Positions 3,279 to 52,136 of a DNA stretch of 64,000 nt are shown one piece after another (within the stretch, counting starts at the first letter, position 1; each line of letters begins with the position of its first letter). The position numbers were made by a program, and so were the translations under genes. This DNA comes from an uncultured Clostridia bacterium (GTDB taxonomy: Bacteria; Bacillota; Clostridia; Christensenellales; UBA1242), in NCBI GenBank assembly GCA_934757845.1, contig CAKVLQ010000001.1, positions 72,398 to 136,397 of the forward strand, written 5' to 3'. A model generated the notes under the pieces. That model had not been told where the DNA came from. It was given only the letters and a program-made list of their open reading frames with translations, and made no database searches.

Positions 3279-3307
3279 TTGACAAAGTGGTTTTTTGTTG
3301 GTAAAAT
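3279..3307 (+). promoter_or_regulatory. Sigma-A type promoter placed for a leaderless MORN-gene transcript
   Basis: TTGACA (3279-3284), 17 nt, TAAAAT (3302-3307), then only 6 nt before ATG 3314. No Shine-Dalgarno. Confidence 0.5.
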
Positions 3308-3313
3308 TTTTGT

Positions 3314-3991
3314 ATGAAAAAAATATCAATAGATTTTGTTTCACCAAAATCACAAGAATCAGAAATTTATAAATTTTTAACAGGCAAACTTTCAAGCGAA
3401 ATTTGTTCGTTTGATGGCTTTGTAAATGACAATGGTTTGCCACAAGGCTCGTGTGCTATTGGGCTTGGAAAAACAAAAAATGGCTTTTTGATGTTTAATT
3501 TAAGTTTTAATGACGGCAAACTTAATGGGTATGGCTCACTTTTAGAACTGGCCGATGACGATACATCAAATGAAATTGCAGGCTACAATTTTTTAACCGA
3601 AAATTATGGCGAAATATACTTTCCAAATGGGAATGTCTATGAGGGCGAAATTGTAGGTGCAAGGCAAGAAGGCAAAGGAAAAATTACTGAACCAAATGGT
3701 GATTTTTCGATTGGATTTTATCAAAACGGAAAACGACATGGCTTGATGCTTCATTATGACAAAGACAGCAATTTGGTTTATAAAAGTGTTTATTATGATG
3801 GACAATTAATTATTTCTTCTGATGATGATAATGAGATTTTGAGTAGTTTGAAGAAATATGATTTTAATTATTCCGAAGTTTTAAATTCTTTAACAAAATT
3901 AAAAAAGCAAAATAAAGAAGATAACCTAAAAAACATAAAAAATGGGCTTAAAAACATTGAAAAAAACATGATTGGTCAAAAAAAGTTTTAA
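3314..3991 (+). CDS. MORN-repeat protein; probably the N-terminal part of a MORN-AAA+ fusion gene (see findings)
   Basis: YxGxxxxGxxxGxG-type MORN repeats (YGEIYFPNGNVYEGEIVGARQEGKGKITEPNGDFSIGFYQNGKRHG). The C-terminus ends ...LKNIEKNMIGQKKF*, which resembles the start of a Clp D2 module. Confidence 0.7.
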   Translation: MKKISIDFVSPKSQESEIYKFLTGKLSSEICSFDGFVNDNGLPQGSCAIGLGKTKNGFLMFNLSFNDGKLNGYGSLLELADDDTSNEIAGYNFLTENYGEIYFPNGNVYEGEIVGARQEGKGKITEPNGDFSIGFYQNGKRHGLMLHYDKDSNLVYKSVYYDGQLIISSDDDNEILSSLKKYDFNYSEVLNSLTKLKKQNKEDNLKNIKNGLKNIEKNMIGQKKF

Positions 3992-4023
3992 AGGTTGTTA
4001 ACAATCATCTTTTATTATCGCTT

Positions 4024-4872
4024 TTGTGCGCAAGAAAAGAAGACAAGCCAATCACTTCAATGGTTTTCACTGGTCCAACTGGTGTTGGAAAAACTGAACT
4101 TGCAAAACAAATTTCAATAAACTTATTTAATAAAAAACCTTTCACTGTTGATTTTGCAAATTTCCATGATGATTTTATGCTTTCAAGTTTAATAGGCTCT
4201 CCTGATGGATATGTTGGAAGTGATAAAGAACCTGAATTTTTAAAATATATTCGTGAAAATTCCGAAACCGGTGGAGTGCTATTATTTGAAGAAATTGATA
4301 AATGCGACCCAGATTGCTTGAATTTCTTTATGCGAATTCTTGACGAAGGTGAAGTTCTTGATTCGCACAATGTTGCTTATTCGGTTAAAAACTTTATTAT
4401 TGTTGCTACAACAAATTTCAGTGCAAACACAACACGAAAACTTGGTTTTTCTGGTGCTGATGACGATGTTAAAATGCAACTTGCAAAAACCGAAACCACA
4501 GGCATGAAACGAGAACAACTTGCTAGGTTTGGTCTTGTTATTGAATTTGAAAACTTTAACAAAGAAGAAAAACGAGAATTAACCTTGATGGCTTTAAATA
4601 AAGCGGTTGAAAGAATAAAAACTATTGACGGATTTAATTTTAAAATTAAATTTTCTGAAAATTTTATTGATGAACTAACTGATAAAATAAATGCTACATT
4701 TGGTGTTCGTGATATTCAAGCAAGGGCATCTAACACAATTAACGATAAACTTGCTGAATTTATTAGGCATCATGATTGCAAAAATATTTCGGTTAAATTT
4801 AATTCGCTTGATGATGTTATAATTAAAGAAATTAAAGCAAAAAAAATAGACGCTAACGAAAAAACACGATAA
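4024..4872 (+). CDS. Clp/Hsp100 D2-like AAA+ ATPase module; likely continuous with 3314-3991 through a -1 frame change
   Basis: Walker A GPTGVGKTELAK, Walker B LLFEEIDK, sensor-1 IIVATTN, sensor-2-like GVRDIQ. The only in-frame start upstream of the Walker A is TTG 4024. The frame is open back to 3961. Confidence 0.75.
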   Translation: MCARKEDKPITSMVFTGPTGVGKTELAKQISINLFNKKPFTVDFANFHDDFMLSSLIGSPDGYVGSDKEPEFLKYIRENSETGGVLLFEEIDKCDPDCLNFFMRILDEGEVLDSHNVAYSVKNFIIVATTNFSANTTRKLGFSGADDDVKMQLAKTETTGMKREQLARFGLVIEFENFNKEEKRELTLMALNKAVERIKTIDGFNFKIKFSENFIDELTDKINATFGVRDIQARASNTINDKLAEFIRHHDCKNISVKFNSLDDVIIKEIKAKKIDANEKTR

Positions 4873-4905
4873 TACAATATATAGTTTTTAAAGGAGGAGT
4901 TTGTT

Positions 4906-5034
4906 ATGAGTTATAATCTAGACGATATTAAGCCAATTATTGTAAGCATTGATGAACTTGTTGGAACAGAAGATGAATCTTATGACCCTTGGGACGAAAT
5001 TATTGACAAAATTGATAACGGCGAAGAACTTTAA
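4906..5034 (+). CDS. 42-aa highly acidic small protein (below the ORF-track cutoff)
   Basis: AAGGAGGAG lies 6 nt upstream of ATG 4906. Translation: MSYNLDDIKPIIVSIDELVGTEDESYDPWDEIIDKIDNGEEL*. A strong terminator follows immediately. Confidence 0.5.
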   Translation: MSYNLDDIKPIIVSIDELVGTEDESYDPWDEIIDKIDNGEEL

Positions 5035-5035
5035 T

Positions 5036-5062
5036 AAAAAACCACCATTTTGGTGGTTTTTT
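5036..5062 (+). terminator. Rho-independent terminator
   Basis: ACCACCA-TTT-TGGTGGT stem-loop flanked by an A-run and a T-run. Confidence 0.8.
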
Positions 5063-5137
5063 ATTGCAAAATGACTTAATATTAAATTTAATTTTTGCGA
5101 GCATAAAACTTTTATATAATTTTTTATGATTTAACAT

Positions 5138-9084: not shown

Positions 9085-10176
9085 TTATAAAACAATCTTT
9101 CCGTTTTCAATTTTAATAATATTTGCACTTTGTTGTGGCATATCAAACTTTGTGGTTGTGATTATGGTTTGAATGTTTTGAACACGCTCAAAAAGTTTTT
9201 GTTTTCGGCTTTCGTCAAGTTCACTAAAAACATCATCTAAAAGCAAAATTGGATATTCACCAAAAACTTCTTTAAAAATTTCAAGTTCGGCAAGTTTTAT
9301 TGAAAGCAAACTTGTTCGTTGTTGACCTTGGCTTCCAAAGGCTTTAACTTCCATATTGTTCAAAAAAATTTTAATGTCATCACGATGCGGACCAACAGTG
9401 GTGTATTTAAGTTTCATATCCTTTTCATGATTTTTTGCAAGTTCTTCAAGCAAAATTTGCTCAATTTGGCTTGCATTTTTGTTTTTAAAGTTAAAGCAAG
9501 AAGAATATTCAAGTTCAAGGTTTTCTTTTCCGCCCGACAAATTAAAATGCTCGGGGCAGGCTTTTTTGCCCAAATTTTCAACAAATTCAAGCCTAAAACA
9601 AATAATTTGGCTTGCAGTGGTTGCCAGTTGATAGTCCCAAATAGGGAGTGTTTCTTTTATAGTTTCAGGGCTTCCACCTTCTTTCAAAAGTTTATTTCGC
9701 TGTTTCAAAATTTTGTTATATTTGATAAGGTGATTATAATATTCTTTGCTTAATTGTGAAATGTCAATGTCCAAAAATCGCCGTCTGTCTTCGGGGGCTT
9801 CTTTAACAAGTTTAAGTTCGCTTGGGGAAAAAAACACGCACGCCAAATTTCCAAGCATAGAACTTGTTTTTGTTATGTTAATTTCGTTAAGTTTAACAAA
9901 TTTTTGATTATCCACAAATTCAATCATAATTGAATTTGTGCCATTATTTTTTTCAAAATCAATCAAAATTTTTGCATTTTTGCTTTCGGTTTTTATCATT
10001 TCTTTTTCGTTTTTGGTTTTAAAACTCTTTCCAATGCACGAAAAATATATGCTCTCAAGTAAATTTGTTTTTCCTTGTGCGTTGTCGCCAAGCAAAATGT
10101 TAATATTTGGCGACAAAACAAATTTTTCAAAAGCATAATTTCGATAGTTTCTTAATTCCACAAATTTTATTTGCAT
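9085..10176 (-). CDS. recF: DNA replication/repair protein RecF
   Basis: N-terminal LLGDNAQGKTNLLESIYF (Walker A), signature GSQGQQRTSLLSIKLAELE, Walker B PILLLDDVFSELD. Confidence 0.92.
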   Translation of the reverse strand: MQIKFVELRNYRNYAFEKFVLSPNINILLGDNAQGKTNLLESIYFSCIGKSFKTKNEKEMIKTESKNAKILIDFEKNNGTNSIMIEFVDNQKFVKLNEINITKTSSMLGNLACVFFSPSELKLVKEAPEDRRRFLDIDISQLSKEYYNHLIKYNKILKQRNKLLKEGGSPETIKETLPIWDYQLATTASQIICFRLEFVENLGKKACPEHFNLSGGKENLELEYSSCFNFKNKNASQIEQILLEELAKNHEKDMKLKYTTVGPHRDDIKIFLNNMEVKAFGSQGQQRTSLLSIKLAELEIFKEVFGEYPILLLDDVFSELDESRKQKLFERVQNIQTIITTTKFDMPQQSANIIKIENGKIVL

Positions 10177-10324
10177 ATATATTTTATTATATCAAAATAA
10201 AAAGTTTTTTCAAATAATATTTAGTTTTAAATTTTGTTGTTTTAAATTGAAAAAAACTAAACTTTAATTTAATTGACAAAAGTTGTTTGTTGCGTTAAAA
10301 TAAAACTACTTAAAAGGACAAAAT

Positions 10325-11695
10325 ATGATAAAGTTATGTGAAAATTGGAACAATGTTTTAAGTTTGCTTGAAAAGGAAGTTACAGCAGTAAGTTTCGACC
10401 TTTGGCTTAAACCATTAAAACCTTTAGCAGTTAAAGATGATGAAATTATAATTTATGCTCAAAGCGAAGCGTGCAAAAATCAGTGTGAGCGTAATTTTTT
10501 GAGTTTAATTAGATTTGCATTAGATTCAACCTTTGGAAATGAGTATAAGGGCTTTAAAATAATCACTGGCGAAGAAGAAAAAAATAAATATGCTGAAAAT
10601 GAACTTGTTGGGGAAGTTCCCGAGGTTCAAAAAAAATCTTCAAATAATTTTAGAACAAACCTAAACAGCAAATATACATTTTCAAACTTTGTTGTTGGCA
10701 AAAGCAATCAAATTGTTTATGCCGCCGCAAAAAATGTGGCAGACTATCCAGCAGCAAGGTTCAATCCGCTTTTCATATACGGCGGAGTTGGTCTTGGCAA
10801 AACGCACTTGCTTCATGCCATTGGAAATCAAATAACTCAAGACAATCCAGACATGAAAGTTTTGTATGTTACTTGTGAACAATTTACAAACGATTATATT
10901 GACGCAATAAGAAGCAATTTCAAAGACAATGCAATTTCGGTGTTTAGGGATAAATATCGAAATGTTGATGTTTTGCTTATTGATGATATTCAATTTATTT
11001 CAAAAAAGATTGAAACGCAAGAAAATTTCTTTCACACATTTAATGATTTGTATGGACAAAACAAACAAATTGTTATTGCTTCCGACCGCCCACCCAAAGA
11101 AATTGAAACTTTAAGTGATAGGCTTCGAAGCAGGTTGCTTTCTGGCATGATTCAAGATATTGGTCAACCAGATTTTGAAACAAGAGTTGCTATTTTAATG
11201 AAAAAAGCACAACTTGAAAACCTTAATGTTCAAAGTGAAGTTATTGACTATCTTGCTGAAAAATATGACACAAATGTTAGAGAGTTAGAAGGTTGTTTGA
11301 GCAAGGTTGTGTTTTATGCAAACTTAATTGGTCATCATTTTGCGGGAATTGAAGATGCAAAAGTTGCTTTAAAAAACTTTGAAGAAGACAATTCACCAAA
11401 AATTACAATCGACCGAATTATTGATGTTTGTTGTGAATATTATGATGTTGACAAAGACGATTTAACGGGCAAAAAGAAAAGCAAAGAAATTGTTGACCCA
11501 AGGCAAATTTGTATGTATTTGATAACTGAAATTTTGAACACGCCACTAAAAACCATTGGCGGAGTGTTTGGGCGAGATCACACAACAGTTATGCACGCAA
11601 GGGATAAAGTTCAACGAATGATAAAAGATGACGCAAACCTTAAAAGTGAAATTAGTGAACTTAAAGAAATTATAAGGCAAAAAGAAAACAACTAG
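10325..11695 (+). CDS. dnaA: Chromosomal replication initiator DnaA
   Basis: NPLFIYGGVGLGKTHLLHAIGN, LLIDDIQF, RELEGCL, and C-terminal DNA-binding region GGVFGRDHTTVMHARDKV. Confidence 0.97.
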   Translation: MIKLCENWNNVLSLLEKEVTAVSFDLWLKPLKPLAVKDDEIIIYAQSEACKNQCERNFLSLIRFALDSTFGNEYKGFKIITGEEEKNKYAENELVGEVPEVQKKSSNNFRTNLNSKYTFSNFVVGKSNQIVYAAAKNVADYPAARFNPLFIYGGVGLGKTHLLHAIGNQITQDNPDMKVLYVTCEQFTNDYIDAIRSNFKDNAISVFRDKYRNVDVLLIDDIQFISKKIETQENFFHTFNDLYGQNKQIVIASDRPPKEIETLSDRLRSRLLSGMIQDIGQPDFETRVAILMKKAQLENLNVQSEVIDYLAEKYDTNVRELEGCLSKVVFYANLIGHHFAGIEDAKVALKNFEEDNSPKITIDRIIDVCCEYYDVDKDDLTGKKKSKEIVDPRQICMYLITEILNTPLKTIGGVFGRDHTTVMHARDKVQRMIKDDANLKSEISELKEIIRQKENN

Positions 11696-29827: not shown

Positions 29828-31333
29828 ATGGAAATAAAAACAGCATTAATTATTTTAGATGGTTTTGGAATTAGAAACAATAGTTATTTTAATGCCGTTA
29901 AAAATGCAAAAACACCATATTTTGATTATTTGTGGAAAAACTATTCTCACACCAAAATAAAAACCTGCGGGCAATATGTGGGGCTCAAAAAAGGGCAGTT
30001 TGGCAACTCGGAAGTTGGGCATTTGAATTTGGGAAGTGGAAGAATTGTTAAACAAAACAGCACTAAAATTTGGGATAGCATTTTGTGTGGGGAATTTTTT
30101 GAAAACAAAAAACTAATATCGCTTTTAAATAACCTTAAAAAAACAAATAATGCACTTCATTTGTTTGGGCTTTGCTCAAACGGCGGAGTGCACAGCGAAA
30201 TTGAACATTTGTTTAGTGTTTTAACACTTTGCAAAAATCAAAATTTTGATAATGTATTTATTCACTTTGTGTCGGACGGGCGAGATACTGATGTTCATAG
30301 TGGAATTAAATTTTTGCAAAAATTAAATAATTTTGTCAAAAAAGTTGGTGTTGGAAAAGTTGTTTCGGTTTGTGGAAGATATTATGCTATGGACCGAGAA
30401 AAAAATTATGACCGAACAAATGAGTTTTTAAAAGTTATTACAAATTATGAAAGCGATAATAAGTTTAATTCTATTAAAGAGGCATTTGAAAAAAGTTATG
30501 AAGCGGGCATAACTGACGAATTTATTAAACCAAGCATTTTAAATTCGGGCAAGTTTTGTGTGAATAAAAATGATGCAATTTTGTGTTTTAATTTTAGAAG
30601 TGATAGAGCAAGACAAATTTTTGAAAAATTAATTGAAAGTGGTTATAAAAATTTATATTCGTTTATTTGTTATGACGAAAAATTTGGTTCAAAAGTGAAC
30701 GTTATTTTTGAAGAAGATGAAGGAAAAAATTGTTTGAGCGAAGTTTTGTCAAAAAACAAAAAAACGCAATTAAGAATAAGCGAAACAACAAAATATGCTC
30801 ATGTAACTTATTTTTTTAATCTTTTAAACGAAATTCCTTTTGCGGGTGAAAACCGAATTATTATTGAAGGTGATAAAGTTGCAAATTTTGCACAAAAGCC
30901 TTTGATGAAAACAAAAGAAATCACGCAAACAGTAATTGGTGAAACAAACAAAACAAAATATGATTTTGTGCTTGTAAACTTTCCAAATGCTGATATGCTG
31001 GGTCATACTGGAAATTATGAACAAACAATAAAAAGTTTAGAGTTTTTGGACAAAAATCTTAAAATTTTGGTTGAAGATTTAAGACAAAAAGATTATATTG
31101 TTTTGATAACTGCTGATCATGGGAATGCTGATATAATGAAATATCCGTCAGGCGAAATTTGCACCACCCACACAACCAGTGATGCACCATTTATTATTGT
31201 TGATAGCAAAAAATATAAACTTTCCAAAAATGGAAAACTTGCAAATGTTAGCCCAACTATTCTTGATTTGATGAAAATAAAACCACCGAAAGAATTTTTG
31301 GAAAAAAGCCTGATTGAGCATAATGAATATTAA
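29828..31333 (+). CDS. gpmI: 2,3-bisphosphoglycerate-independent phosphoglycerate mutase
   Basis: LIILDGFG, GNSEVGHLNLGSGR, DGRDT, NADMLGHTG, TADHGNA. Confidence 0.93.
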   Translation: MEIKTALIILDGFGIRNNSYFNAVKNAKTPYFDYLWKNYSHTKIKTCGQYVGLKKGQFGNSEVGHLNLGSGRIVKQNSTKIWDSILCGEFFENKKLISLLNNLKKTNNALHLFGLCSNGGVHSEIEHLFSVLTLCKNQNFDNVFIHFVSDGRDTDVHSGIKFLQKLNNFVKKVGVGKVVSVCGRYYAMDREKNYDRTNEFLKVITNYESDNKFNSIKEAFEKSYEAGITDEFIKPSILNSGKFCVNKNDAILCFNFRSDRARQIFEKLIESGYKNLYSFICYDEKFGSKVNVIFEEDEGKNCLSEVLSKNKKTQLRISETTKYAHVTYFFNLLNEIPFAGENRIIIEGDKVANFAQKPLMKTKEITQTVIGETNKTKYDFVLVNFPNADMLGHTGNYEQTIKSLEFLDKNLKILVEDLRQKDYIVLITADHGNADIMKYPSGEICTTHTTSDAPFIIVDSKKYKLSKNGKLANVSPTILDLMKIKPPKEFLEKSLIEHNEY

Positions 31334-40452: not shown

Positions 40453-41277
40453 ATGAATTGGTTTGAAAAATTTATTTATGCGCTTTCTGGTGAAATGCCA
40501 ACCCCATCAAATTATGGCTGGTTTCATCTTATGTTTATTGCAATTTTTATTGGGCTAAGTGTTGCAATAGTTTTTGTAACAAAAAAACATAAATCTGAAA
40601 AATCTTTTAAAATTATTGTTTGGACAAGTTGGGCTATTATGTTTTTGCTTGAAATTTATAAACAACTTGTTTTCAGTTTAAGTGTTGCAGACGGGGTTGC
40701 AACTTGGAAATATCATTGGTATTCTTTTCCTTATCAACTTTGTTCAACGCCACTTTATGTTTTGCCAATAATTGGTTGCTTAAAAGAAAGTAAATTTCGT
40801 GATGCACTTATGAGTTTTATTTCTACCTTTGCATTTTTTGGTGGATTGGTTGTTTTTATTTACCCAGGCAATGTTTTTGTTGAAACTATTGGTATAAATT
40901 TGCAAACTATGATTCATCATGGTCTTCAAATATTTATTGGGGTTTATTTTATTTGTTATAATAAGCAAAAAATTGATTTTAAATATTTTTTAAAGGCAAT
41001 TTATGTGTTTTTAGTTTCTCTTTCGCTAGCAATGATTTTGAATTTGCTTGCTCCAACTTTCACAAATCAAACTTTTAATATGTTTTATATAAGTCCTTAT
41101 TTCCCAAGTGTTTTGCCACTTTTAGATGTTATTTATGCAAATGTGCCTTATATTTGCTATCTTTTAATTTATATTTTTGGATTTGTGCTTGCTGCATTTA
41201 TCGTTCAAGTTGTAACAATGCTTTGCACCGGCAAATTCAAAAAAAAGGAACAAACAAATGAAAAGTCTCAAAATTAG
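40453..41277 (+). CDS. Polytopic integral membrane protein (family not confidently recognised)
   Basis: About 7-8 hydrophobic segments. No diagnostic motif recognised. Confidence 0.45.
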   Translation: MNWFEKFIYALSGEMPTPSNYGWFHLMFIAIFIGLSVAIVFVTKKHKSEKSFKIIVWTSWAIMFLLEIYKQLVFSLSVADGVATWKYHWYSFPYQLCSTPLYVLPIIGCLKESKFRDALMSFISTFAFFGGLVVFIYPGNVFVETIGINLQTMIHHGLQIFIGVYFICYNKQKIDFKYFLKAIYVFLVSLSLAMILNLLAPTFTNQTFNMFYISPYFPSVLPLLDVIYANVPYICYLLIYIFGFVLAAFIVQVVTMLCTGKFKKKEQTNEKSQN

Positions 41278-41947
41278 TTTTTTTGTTTTGTTTGCTATAA
41301 TTGAAATTGTTTTTTTGGTTTTGGTTCAAGTTTTAAGGGGAGAGATTATTCCAATAATTGAATATATCAGCATTGCACTTTGTTTTGCGTATAGTTTGAT
41401 ATTTATAAAATCAAAAAAGTTAAATTTTATAATTTCAATTGCATTAGCCTTCTCGCTTTGTGCAGATGCTTGCCTTGTGCTTGCAAATCCAATAAAACAA
41501 CTTTTGGGAACAAGTTTCTTTTTGGTTGCACAAATTGTATATTGTGTTTATATAATTTTAAAAACTCAAAACAAAAAAATAAATGTGGCAAATATTATAG
41601 CAAGAGTTTGTGGCTCGGGATTAATAATTTTGATAACTTATCTTGTGTTAAAACAAAATTTTGACGCATTAAGTGCTGTTTCAATAATATATATCTTTAA
41701 TTTGCTATTAAATATTATATTTTCTTTTTTCACTTTTGGTCAAAACAAATGTTTTTCTATTGGGCTTATTTTGTTTTTTGTTTGCGACATTTTTATTGGG
41801 CTTTCTGCCGCAAATGGTGCTTACTTCACAATTTCAAATCAAGCGATAAGTTCTTTTATTAACGGACCGATTGCATGGTTATTTTATATCCCATCACAAA
41901 CGCTTTTGGCTTTTGAAACAAGTTGTGATTATAGCAAAAAGTTATAA
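41258..41947 (+). CDS. YhhN-like (lysoplasmalogenase family) integral membrane protein
   Basis: About 8 TM segments. LCADACLVL and FFVCDIFIGL resemble the paired F..(S/C)D..(L/I) motifs of YhhN/TMEM86. Confidence 0.5.
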   Translation: MKSLKISFFVLFAIIEIVFLVLVQVLRGEIIPIIEYISIALCFAYSLIFIKSKKLNFIISIALAFSLCADACLVLANPIKQLLGTSFFLVAQIVYCVYIILKTQNKKINVANIIARVCGSGLIILITYLVLKQNFDALSAVSIIYIFNLLLNIIFSFFTFGQNKCFSIGLILFFVCDIFIGLSAANGAYFTISNQAISSFINGPIAWLFYIPSQTLLAFETSCDYSKKL

Positions 41948-52000: not shown

Positions 52001-52136
52001 AAGATTAAACTATTTTACACAAAACTTTTTTTTTTGTCAAGGCTTTTAAATAAATTGTTAAATTAATAGAAAATTAAGTTAAAAAACAGCCCAAAAAAAT
52101 TAAAATAAAAAAAATTAAAAAATTTGTAAAAAATTA

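Follow-up and report, generated by a model that had tools for sequence, protein, structure and literature searches.

When an A_AAA_AAG heptamer joins two open reading frames (ORFs) in exactly the phase of the -1 slippery site of dnaX, is it a signal for programmed ribosomal frameshifting or the trace of a more ordinary event? The question is raised by a locus in 64 000 nucleotides (nt) of DNA from an uncultured Clostridia bacterium (GenBank assembly GCA_934757845.1, contig CAKVLQ010000001.1, positions 72 398 to 136 397; we call this whole 64-kb stretch the window), in which an ORF encoding MORN repeats is followed in the -1 frame by an ORF encoding an AAA+ ATPase module. The original prediction regarded the two ORFs as one split gene and offered three readings of the split: programmed frameshifting, a phase-variable homopolymer, and a sequencing or assembly indel. 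The reading that we found to fit best, a plain frameshift mutation specific to one strain, was absent from that list; the dnaX-like slippery site most likely arose as a by-product of such a mutation and not as a programmed recoding signal.

The zero-frame ORF (ORF1, plus strand, 3314–3991) encodes 225 amino acids (aa), a MORN-repeat N-domain (residues ~1–170) and a helical linker; its C-terminus reads NMIGQKKF followed by a stop, the QKKF ending being a product of the frame break. At the junction (plus strand, 3978–3991) we observed a run of seven A (A7, 3978–3984), the heptamer (3979–3985) and the zero-frame TAA (3989–3991). The zero-frame codons, CAA (starting at 3977), AAA, AAG, TTT and TAA, place the heptamer in the X_XXY_YYZ phase, so the predicted dnaX-type phase was confirmed. 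The zero-frame stop lies close behind the heptamer, with one sense codon between them. The -1 frame stays open between 3961 and 4872, and the continuation proper (plus strand, 3985–4872; 295 codons and a stop) encodes a ClpC/ClpE-type AAA-2 (D2) module with its small C-terminal subdomain. Joined after the AAG, the two parts make a conceptual fusion of 519 aa in which NMIGQKK is followed by VLKVVNNHLLLSLLCARKEDKPITSMVFTGPTGVGKT, running from VLKVV to the GPTGVGKT of the Walker A motif.

The join represents true homology rather than chance, because homologous proteins, profile alignments and predicted helices all span or flank it. Eighteen homologues align unbroken across the junction, and their alignment has invariant positions on both sides of it (G221 and Q222 directly before, L233 and the P-loop directly after); profile alignments from PADLOC (residues 190–375) cross residue 224, and so do those from PDB. 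An AlphaFold model computed on the family alignment (mean predicted local distance difference test score, pLDDT, of 80) has confident helices at residues 201–218 and 223–238, on either side of the junction. The MORN ORF and the AAA+ ORF are thus one gene split by a -1 frame change, as had been proposed. The proposal had also taken IGQ followed by GPTGVGKT for the start of a Clp D2 module with 29 residues between the motifs; the motif stands, and 31 residues actually lie between its two parts, as they do in Staphylococcus aureus ClpC.

It is unlikely that translation of the AAA+ half starts independently, at TTG 4024 or at an internal ATG (plus strand, 4060–4062): neither codon has a Shine–Dalgarno (SD) sequence, no orthologue is organized in this way, and the first AAA+ helix would be lost. 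It had been stated that no ATG precedes the Walker A motif; in fact ATG 4060 lies four codons before GPTGVGKT and is the start chosen by gene callers for a 270-aa product (equivalent to 4060–4872), which would be without that helix. The accompanying statement that the AAA+ ORF has no ribosome-binding site was correct, as no GGAGG-like element is found upstream of this ATG.

The comparison of orthologues, which the original prediction had named as a check, speaks for a fused gene. In a search of ~5.8 billion proteins we found 18 relatives (P0001–P0018) with 26–75% identity. All 18 are encoded by single uninterrupted ORFs of 515–651 aa, barring one 438-aa partial sequence truncated by the end of its contig; the closer relatives cover 97–100% of the conceptual fusion. 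An intact protein of 520 aa (P0123), a member of the 90%-identity cluster of the window's AAA+ half, is ~92% identical to the window protein over the AAA+ half (non-synonymous divergence, dN, of 0.036) and 72% identical over the N-terminal part. It is encoded on a syntenic contig from the Hadza gut (L086), the nearest relative of the window. The shared gene order is Big_3, Cu/Zn superoxide dismutase, a 312-aa ORF, HIT, the ATPase gene, a 42-aa ORF, polysaccharide deacetylase and pseudouridine synthase; the nucleotide sequences agree to 97% in the flank upstream and to 91% over the gene. A single base separates them at the junction: L086 has GGT CAA AAG AAA GTT TTA AAG, and the window has GGT CAA AA- AAA GTT TTA AAG. 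The slip site itself is absent from L086.

Other intact orthologues have different codons at this point: CAA AAA AAG GTG in L001, CAA AAA AAT GCT in L002, CAA AAG AAG GCT in L088, CAA AGA AAT GCC in L089, CAA GAT ATT GCT in L092 and CAA AAA AAG GCA in L093 and L094. The two residues following GQ differ across the family (KK, KN, KE, RN, RH, RK, DI, TK, KQ); the Lys-Lys pair at the junction is not conserved. Two of the intact orthologues (L001 and L093) do hold an in-phase heptamer, as plain Gln-Lys-Lys codons of an unbroken gene. What is conserved is therefore the fused single gene and not the A_AAA_AAG split. The idea of a family-wide production of two isoforms by frameshifting at QKK was rejected, as both residues and codons vary there. 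A profile scan of genome contigs with the family alignment yielded no orthologue, its matches being swamped by ordinary ClpB and ClpC genes, and two scans of metagenome contigs yielded no close relative.

The phase of the heptamer, which looks so specific, follows from the deletion. Loss of one base anywhere in CAA AAR AAA GTT leaves CA-A AAA AAG TT in the old frame, automatically in phase, and the heptamer has its exact phase because the deletion fell within this stretch. The motif is also common: the window has 30% GC, and its 46 long ORFs, with 18 094 codons in all, contain 12 in-phase copies of A_AAA_AAG, among them a second one within ORF1 itself, at 3901. Because of this frequency, the in-phase heptamer carries little weight as a sign of recoding.

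Nor did we detect elements that could stimulate a slip. The 60 nt downstream of the heptamer fold with -10 kcal/mol (z = -1.1), and 28 of 200 shuffled sequences fold as well, so no stimulatory structure is indicated; the downstream fold of the intact L086 gene is the same structure as in the window. There is no SD-like (GGAGG-like) element in the sequence upstream of the heptamer, and an Rfam scan at the junction gave no match, to the DnaX element or to any other. With all 18 relatives fused, the slip site missing from L086 and no stimulator in place, programmed -1 frameshifting is unsupported.

The locus can be compared with Escherichia coli dnaX. Both genes have an identical A_AAA_AAG in the same phase, decoding by tRNA-Lys(UUU) and a near zero-frame stop. 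However, the dnaX heptamer is flanked by an SD-like element upstream and a stem-loop downstream, whereas the window gene has neither; the dnaX arrangement is conserved among relatives, whereas that of the window is seen in one strain only; and the polarity is reversed, since in the window gene the shift would give the long product. As a recoding candidate the locus is of little import, and it is more useful as a negative example. AT-rich genomes routinely yield in-phase A_AAA_AAG at Gln/Lys-Lys codons; a one-base deletion within such codons always mimics a dnaX-type site, and conservation alone separates a programmed site from a fresh mutation.

We conclude that the locus is a single gene for a MORN-domain, single-ring Clp/Hsp100-type ATPase and that it probably carries a genuine, recent and strain-specific one-base deletion, with the slippery site as a by-product. 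The sequences show the common origin of the two ORFs, the missing base in comparison with the relatives, the lack of conservation of both split and slip site, and the lack of stimulators; we infer that the deletion is real and no assembly error, that it is recent, and that any leak takes place. One base would have been lost, in this strain, within the Gln-Lys-Lys-Val codons at the boundary of linker and AAA+ module, and standard decoding would then give a MORN-only fragment of 225 aa. As a deletion in CAA AAR AAA GTT necessarily leaves CA-A_AAA_AAG in phase, a -1 slip of tRNA-Lys at the heptamer would restore the ancestral QKKV, and some full-length protein may persist. Any such leak is expected to be small: in E. 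coli reporters, heptamers without stimulators gave frameshifting 2–10x above a background of 0.055% (PMC4066793), which would put the leak well under 1%, though efficiency depends on context.

Substitutions in the AAA+ half bear on the age of the deletion. On the branch leading to the window, with L001 as outgroup, this half shows 13 synonymous against 5 non-synonymous changes and is free of a second lesion. Non-synonymous sites outnumber synonymous ones ~3.8-fold; the pairwise ratio of non-synonymous to synonymous divergence (dN/dS) against L086 is 0.18. The AAA+ half has not been drifting neutrally for most of this branch; therefore, either the deletion is recent or this half is still expressed.

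Several points weigh against the view that we prefer. The substitution pattern in the AAA+ half, one of purifying selection, fits a recent deletion and compensatory frameshifting equally well. A leak could be substantial, given that C-AAA-AAA in the vector pDEST17 has been reported by Belfield et al. to rescue one-base deletions by -1 frameshifting with 25–60% efficiency upon overexpression in E. coli (PMC1851650). Judging from record names, the assemblies with the A7 tract may share one sample of the Hadza study, and the split and intact alleles both point to this deep-sequencing study. Finally, the length of the tract is that read from assembled contigs, and the population may be a mixture of A7 and A8.

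The first alternative to be weighed is that the slip is functional: compensatory or nascent programmed -1 frameshifting would produce useful amounts of both the 225-aa MORN protein and the full-length ATPase, and selection would maintain it. We regard this as unlikely, with some chance of being right. The exact phase of the heptamer, the zero-frame stop one sense codon on, the return of QKKV upon slippage and the 13:5 ratio of synonymous to non-synonymous changes in an intact AAA+ half would all be expected from it. Moreover, AAG is a rare Lys codon in the window (44 AAG against 384 AAA), the only tRNA-Lys of which has the anticodon UUU; in E. coli, AAG is made shifty by just this combination (PMC4066793). 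There is also a likeness to the known cases of compensatory frameshifting at A-runs (C-AAA-AAA in pDEST17, PMC1851650; reviewed in PMC5009743): a one-base deletion by or in an A-run of Lys codons, and a -1 slip on the run that would bring back the original protein. The known cases are established by experiment, with overexpression in E. coli, whereas the window gene is known from its sequence and belongs to another context and organism. Against a functional slip stand the confinement of the split to one strain, the lack of either an SD-like or a structural stimulator, the automatic origin and commonness of the heptamer, and the expected efficiency of less than ~1% in the absence of stimulators.

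A bolder version has two parts that are independent of each other: the locus would be a recoding site at its birth, a ‘pseudo-pseudogene’ in which slippage gives a free MORN domain and a full-length ATPase in a set ratio, and the gene would belong to an undescribed family of single-ring unfoldases that partner ClpP. Taken together, this is a rather improbable proposition.

Phase variation, in which slipped-strand mispairing would toggle the tract between A7 (off) and A8 (on) and so switch the ATPase module, appears quite improbable. The split does lie in a homopolymer of seven, and one added A would bring back the frame and the ancestral protein. However, the sole other allele known, that of L086, has an interrupted tract, AAAAGAAA, and not A8; tracts of this kind are everywhere (155 A/T runs of 7–8 in 64 kb), so that this tract is not singled out as a contingency locus; A7 is short for efficient switching; and the gene is a syntenic chromosomal one ~6 kb from dnaA and not a surface or restriction-modification gene.

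It is very improbable that the gene is intact in the real genome, with A8 or AAAAGAAA, and that a base was missed in sequencing or assembly. Homopolymers are classic sites of length errors, and the contigs that carry A7 may have one sample as their source. A 553-kb ENA scaffold (ERZ28614050) and a Logan contig (ERR7738630) contain the exact 225-aa ORF1, and they match the window with 100% identity over 4–6.7 kb. Against an error, A7 was obtained in two different pipelines (an ENA/SPIRE-style scaffold and a Logan contig) as well as in the NCBI record; the 43 A8/T8 runs elsewhere in the window break no gene; DnaA, RecF, TypA, RNase R, SecA and DnaB match full-length models; and a scan for ORF pairs that could be merged by a one-base change in a homopolymer finds in the window this locus only. 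Another candidate for a homopolymer-linked split, at an A8 run (41239–41246), was rejected, as translation of the second gene can start from an SD and ATG (41258) of its own; the two genes, for membrane proteins (40453–41277 and 41258–41947), share 20 nt at this run in an ordinary overlap.

Transcriptional slippage, by which RNA polymerase would add an A on the A7 template so that some mRNAs encode the full-length protein, is highly improbable: one inserted A would restore the frame, and the sharp cut-off in A/T-run length described below suggests selection against slippage-prone tracts and a polymerase able to slip on long runs, but A7 is well below the run length of 9 A or T for which efficient slippage has been reported in bacteria (PMC5009743), and the split arrangement is not conserved.

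In the whole window, A/T runs of lengths 4–8 number 1465, 628, 273, 112 and 43, a ~2.4-fold fall per added base. Runs of 9 are missing, with ~17 expected, and length 10 is represented by a single T10 (52026–52035), with ~7 expected; the cut-off coincides with the length at which slippage of bacterial RNA polymerase turns efficient.

Leaving the deletion aside, the gene family itself is worth more follow-up than the frameshift. The MORN nature of the N-domain is not evident at first sight: scored alone, the window protein reaches 21 bits with the Pfam MORN model, against a gathering cut-off of 22.5. The family profile matched solved MORN1 structures with E = 2.6e-14 to 5.6e-12, and PF02493 is recorded for longer orthologues, which carry extra inserted MORN repeats (26.4 bits in P0126). 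In the AlphaFold model residues 1–170 form an all-beta repeat domain (pLDDT ~90), and the tandem YxGxWxxGKxxGxG-like beta hairpins that characterize MORN repeats are present.

The combination of MORN repeats with an Hsp100 D2 module is indeed unusual, as had been suggested. In a profile search run exhaustively over 1.84 billion representatives, only ~5–8 clusters (at 50% identity) covered both domains, next to many proteins of 540–590 aa that have the linker and the AAA+ module and other N-domains. No NCBIfam model reaches its cut-off for the family, and literature searches brought up no relevant account of MORN repeats combined with a Clp/Hsp100 module. The proteins with MORN repeats and a single-ring Clp ATPase form a small, unnamed and uncharacterized family of gut Clostridia.

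Between the two close strains the N-domain has diverged much more than the AAA+ half and the flanks. Between the window (3314–3823) and L086 (8001–8510), residues 1–170 show a synonymous divergence (dS) of 0.70 and a dN of 0.23, and the 225-aa N-terminal part is 72% identical; for comparison, dS is 0.20 and dN 0.036 in the AAA+ half, next to 97% nucleotide identity in the upstream flank. The excess suggests recombination or diversifying selection acting on what is presumably a recognition domain. The MORN domain may select substrates or a location.

The assignment of the C-terminal half to the Hsp100/Clp D2-type AAA+ modules, part of the original prediction, is supported by profile and fold searches. 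The fusion matched Pfam AAA_2 with E = 7.5e-25; in the PDB profile search the E-values were 2.8e-54 for ClpC, 5e-53 for ClpE, 5e-47 for ClpB D2 and 1e-37 for Skd3; and the best Foldseek matches of the AlphaFold model were S. aureus ClpC chains in ClpC-ClpP complexes (E = 1.6e-21), with template modelling scores (TM-scores) of 0.7–0.8 on ClpB NBD2. The functional motifs are in place, all on the plus strand. The Walker A motif GPTGVGKT (4072–4095; G254–T261) is invariant in the family alignment; the pore loop GYVG (4207–4218) has invariant G299, Y300 and G302 and aligns with the GYVG of ClpC and ClpE; in the Walker B region VLLFEEID (4276–4299) F325, E327 and D329 are invariant; and in the sensor-1 TTN T366 and N368 are invariant and T367 is nearly so.

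A tripeptide L-G-F (plus strand, 4441–4449; residues 377–379), in the loop after sensor-1, occupies in the alignment the position of the PhiGF motif for ClpP docking. G378 and F379 are invariant in the family, which has L, V or I at position 377. The loop (372–381) is disordered in the AlphaFold model (pLDDT <50). The counterpart of the tripeptide in S. aureus ClpC is, by alignment, A671-G672-F673, the PhiGF motif with which ClpC docks into the H-sites of ClpP; its mutation G672D/F673D abolishes binding (PMC12521514). ClpB is not known to have such a ClpP-docking loop. From these motifs we infer a single-ring unfoldase that would deliver substrates to ClpP; no clpP gene is present within the 64-kb window. 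If the family does dock ClpP, it would be a new architecture among bacterial Clp unfoldases.

Compared with ClpC, ClpE and ClpA, the AAA-2 (D2) ring of which gives the best sequence and fold matches, the window protein has the same Walker A and B motifs, GYVG pore loop, 31-residue spacing from IGQ to the P-loop and PhiGF tripeptide. Unlike them it is single-ring, with one AAA+ module only (residues 225–519) in place of the tandem AAA-1 and AAA-2 of class I Clp ATPases (ClpA/B/C/E/L), and it is without the Clp_N, AAA-1 and M-domain; a MORN-repeat beta domain forms the N-terminus instead. Skd3 (human CLPB), a mitochondrial disaggregase that is not known to have a ClpP-docking loop, has a similar plan, a repeat domain and then one Hsp100 D2-type module (the family-profile match is the one given above), but its repeats are ankyrin and not MORN, and the MORN-ATPase family keeps the invariant GF.

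The single ClpB-like ATPases of two candidate defence systems in PADLOC, PDC-M37B and Dodola DolB, also resemble the window protein over the linker and AAA+ core (hidden Markov model E = 8e-37 and 8e-25); unlike in these systems, no partner gene of either adjoins the window ATPase. The similarity reflects the shared linker and AAA+ module. A role in defence was rejected on context: the neighbours (HIT, Cu/Zn superoxide dismutase, polysaccharide deacetylase, pseudouridine synthase) are housekeeping genes, and the only partner conserved along with the ATPase is the small acidic ORF described next. A defence island is not to be expected at a place of conserved synteny ~6 kb from recF and dnaA.

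The ATPase gene is directly followed by a small acidic ORF (plus strand, 4906–5034; 42 aa, pI ~4), preceded by the SD sequence AAAGGAGGAG (4890–4899) and ending in the conserved tail YDPWDEIIDKIDNGEEL. An ORF of 36–42 aa occupies this place in six loci: that of the window, L086 (9597–9725), L001 (1982–2110), L002 (1787–1903), L088 (2078–2188) and L089 (4149–4268). The tail hardly varies, if at all, and its nucleotide differences are mostly synonymous and in third positions, the exceptions being an I-to-V replacement in L089 and the divergent tail of L088. The ORF has no match in Pfam, PADLOC or NCBIfam; in distant orthologues a different ORF of 108–113 aa stands in its place, or none. The 42-aa ORF is a real gene, and the view that it belongs with the ATPase gene was borne out by the six loci. 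Its product may serve as an adaptor or regulator of the ATPase.

The two-gene unit is closed by a terminator-like hairpin (plus strand, 5036–5063), AAAAAACCACC-ATTTT-GGTGGTTTTTT, followed by a T-run; it was read by eye and is absent from the consensus scan. In L086 the stem and the T-run are the same, with a loop AAAAT in place of ATTTT.

At its other end the unit begins with a promoter (plus strand, 3279–3307) that matches the consensus in 11 of 12 positions: a -35 TTGACA (3279–3284), a 17-nt spacer with TG and a -10 TAAAAT (3302–3307). The order is TTGACA-17-TGnTAAAAT, then 6 nt, then ATG, with no SD; the original prediction of a leaderless gene agrees with this, the -10 element ending 6 nt before the ATG. 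The hexamers and the exact spacing to the ATG are kept in all eight loci compared (the window, L086, L001, L002, L088, L089, L092 and L093), among them orthologues with as little as 41–46% protein identity. Because of this conservation in eight loci, a predicted leaderless mRNA starting at 3314 is well supported, and the ATPase and its small acidic partner would be co-transcribed on it. The promoter (TATTGACA, 17 nt with TG, TAAAAT) stands exactly 6 nt from the ATG in every orthologue, none of which has an SD; the host otherwise uses strong SD sequences, e.g. AAAGGAGG ahead of the small ORF. The family thus combines a MORN domain, a ClpC/ClpE-type ring with pore loop and ClpP-docking motif, a leaderless promoter and an acidic micro-protein.

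As to the wider setting, the window is situated at the chromosomal origin region. At 9085–11695 recF, on the minus strand, and dnaA, on the plus strand, point away from each other, with dnaB, typA, rnr and secA further along; the more distant orthologue in L092 also adjoins dnaA. A 92-nt ‘tRNA-Asp’ with anticodon ATC, reported by ARAGORN on the minus strand at 31143–31234, overlaps a long plus-strand ORF (29828–31333) and is probably a false positive.

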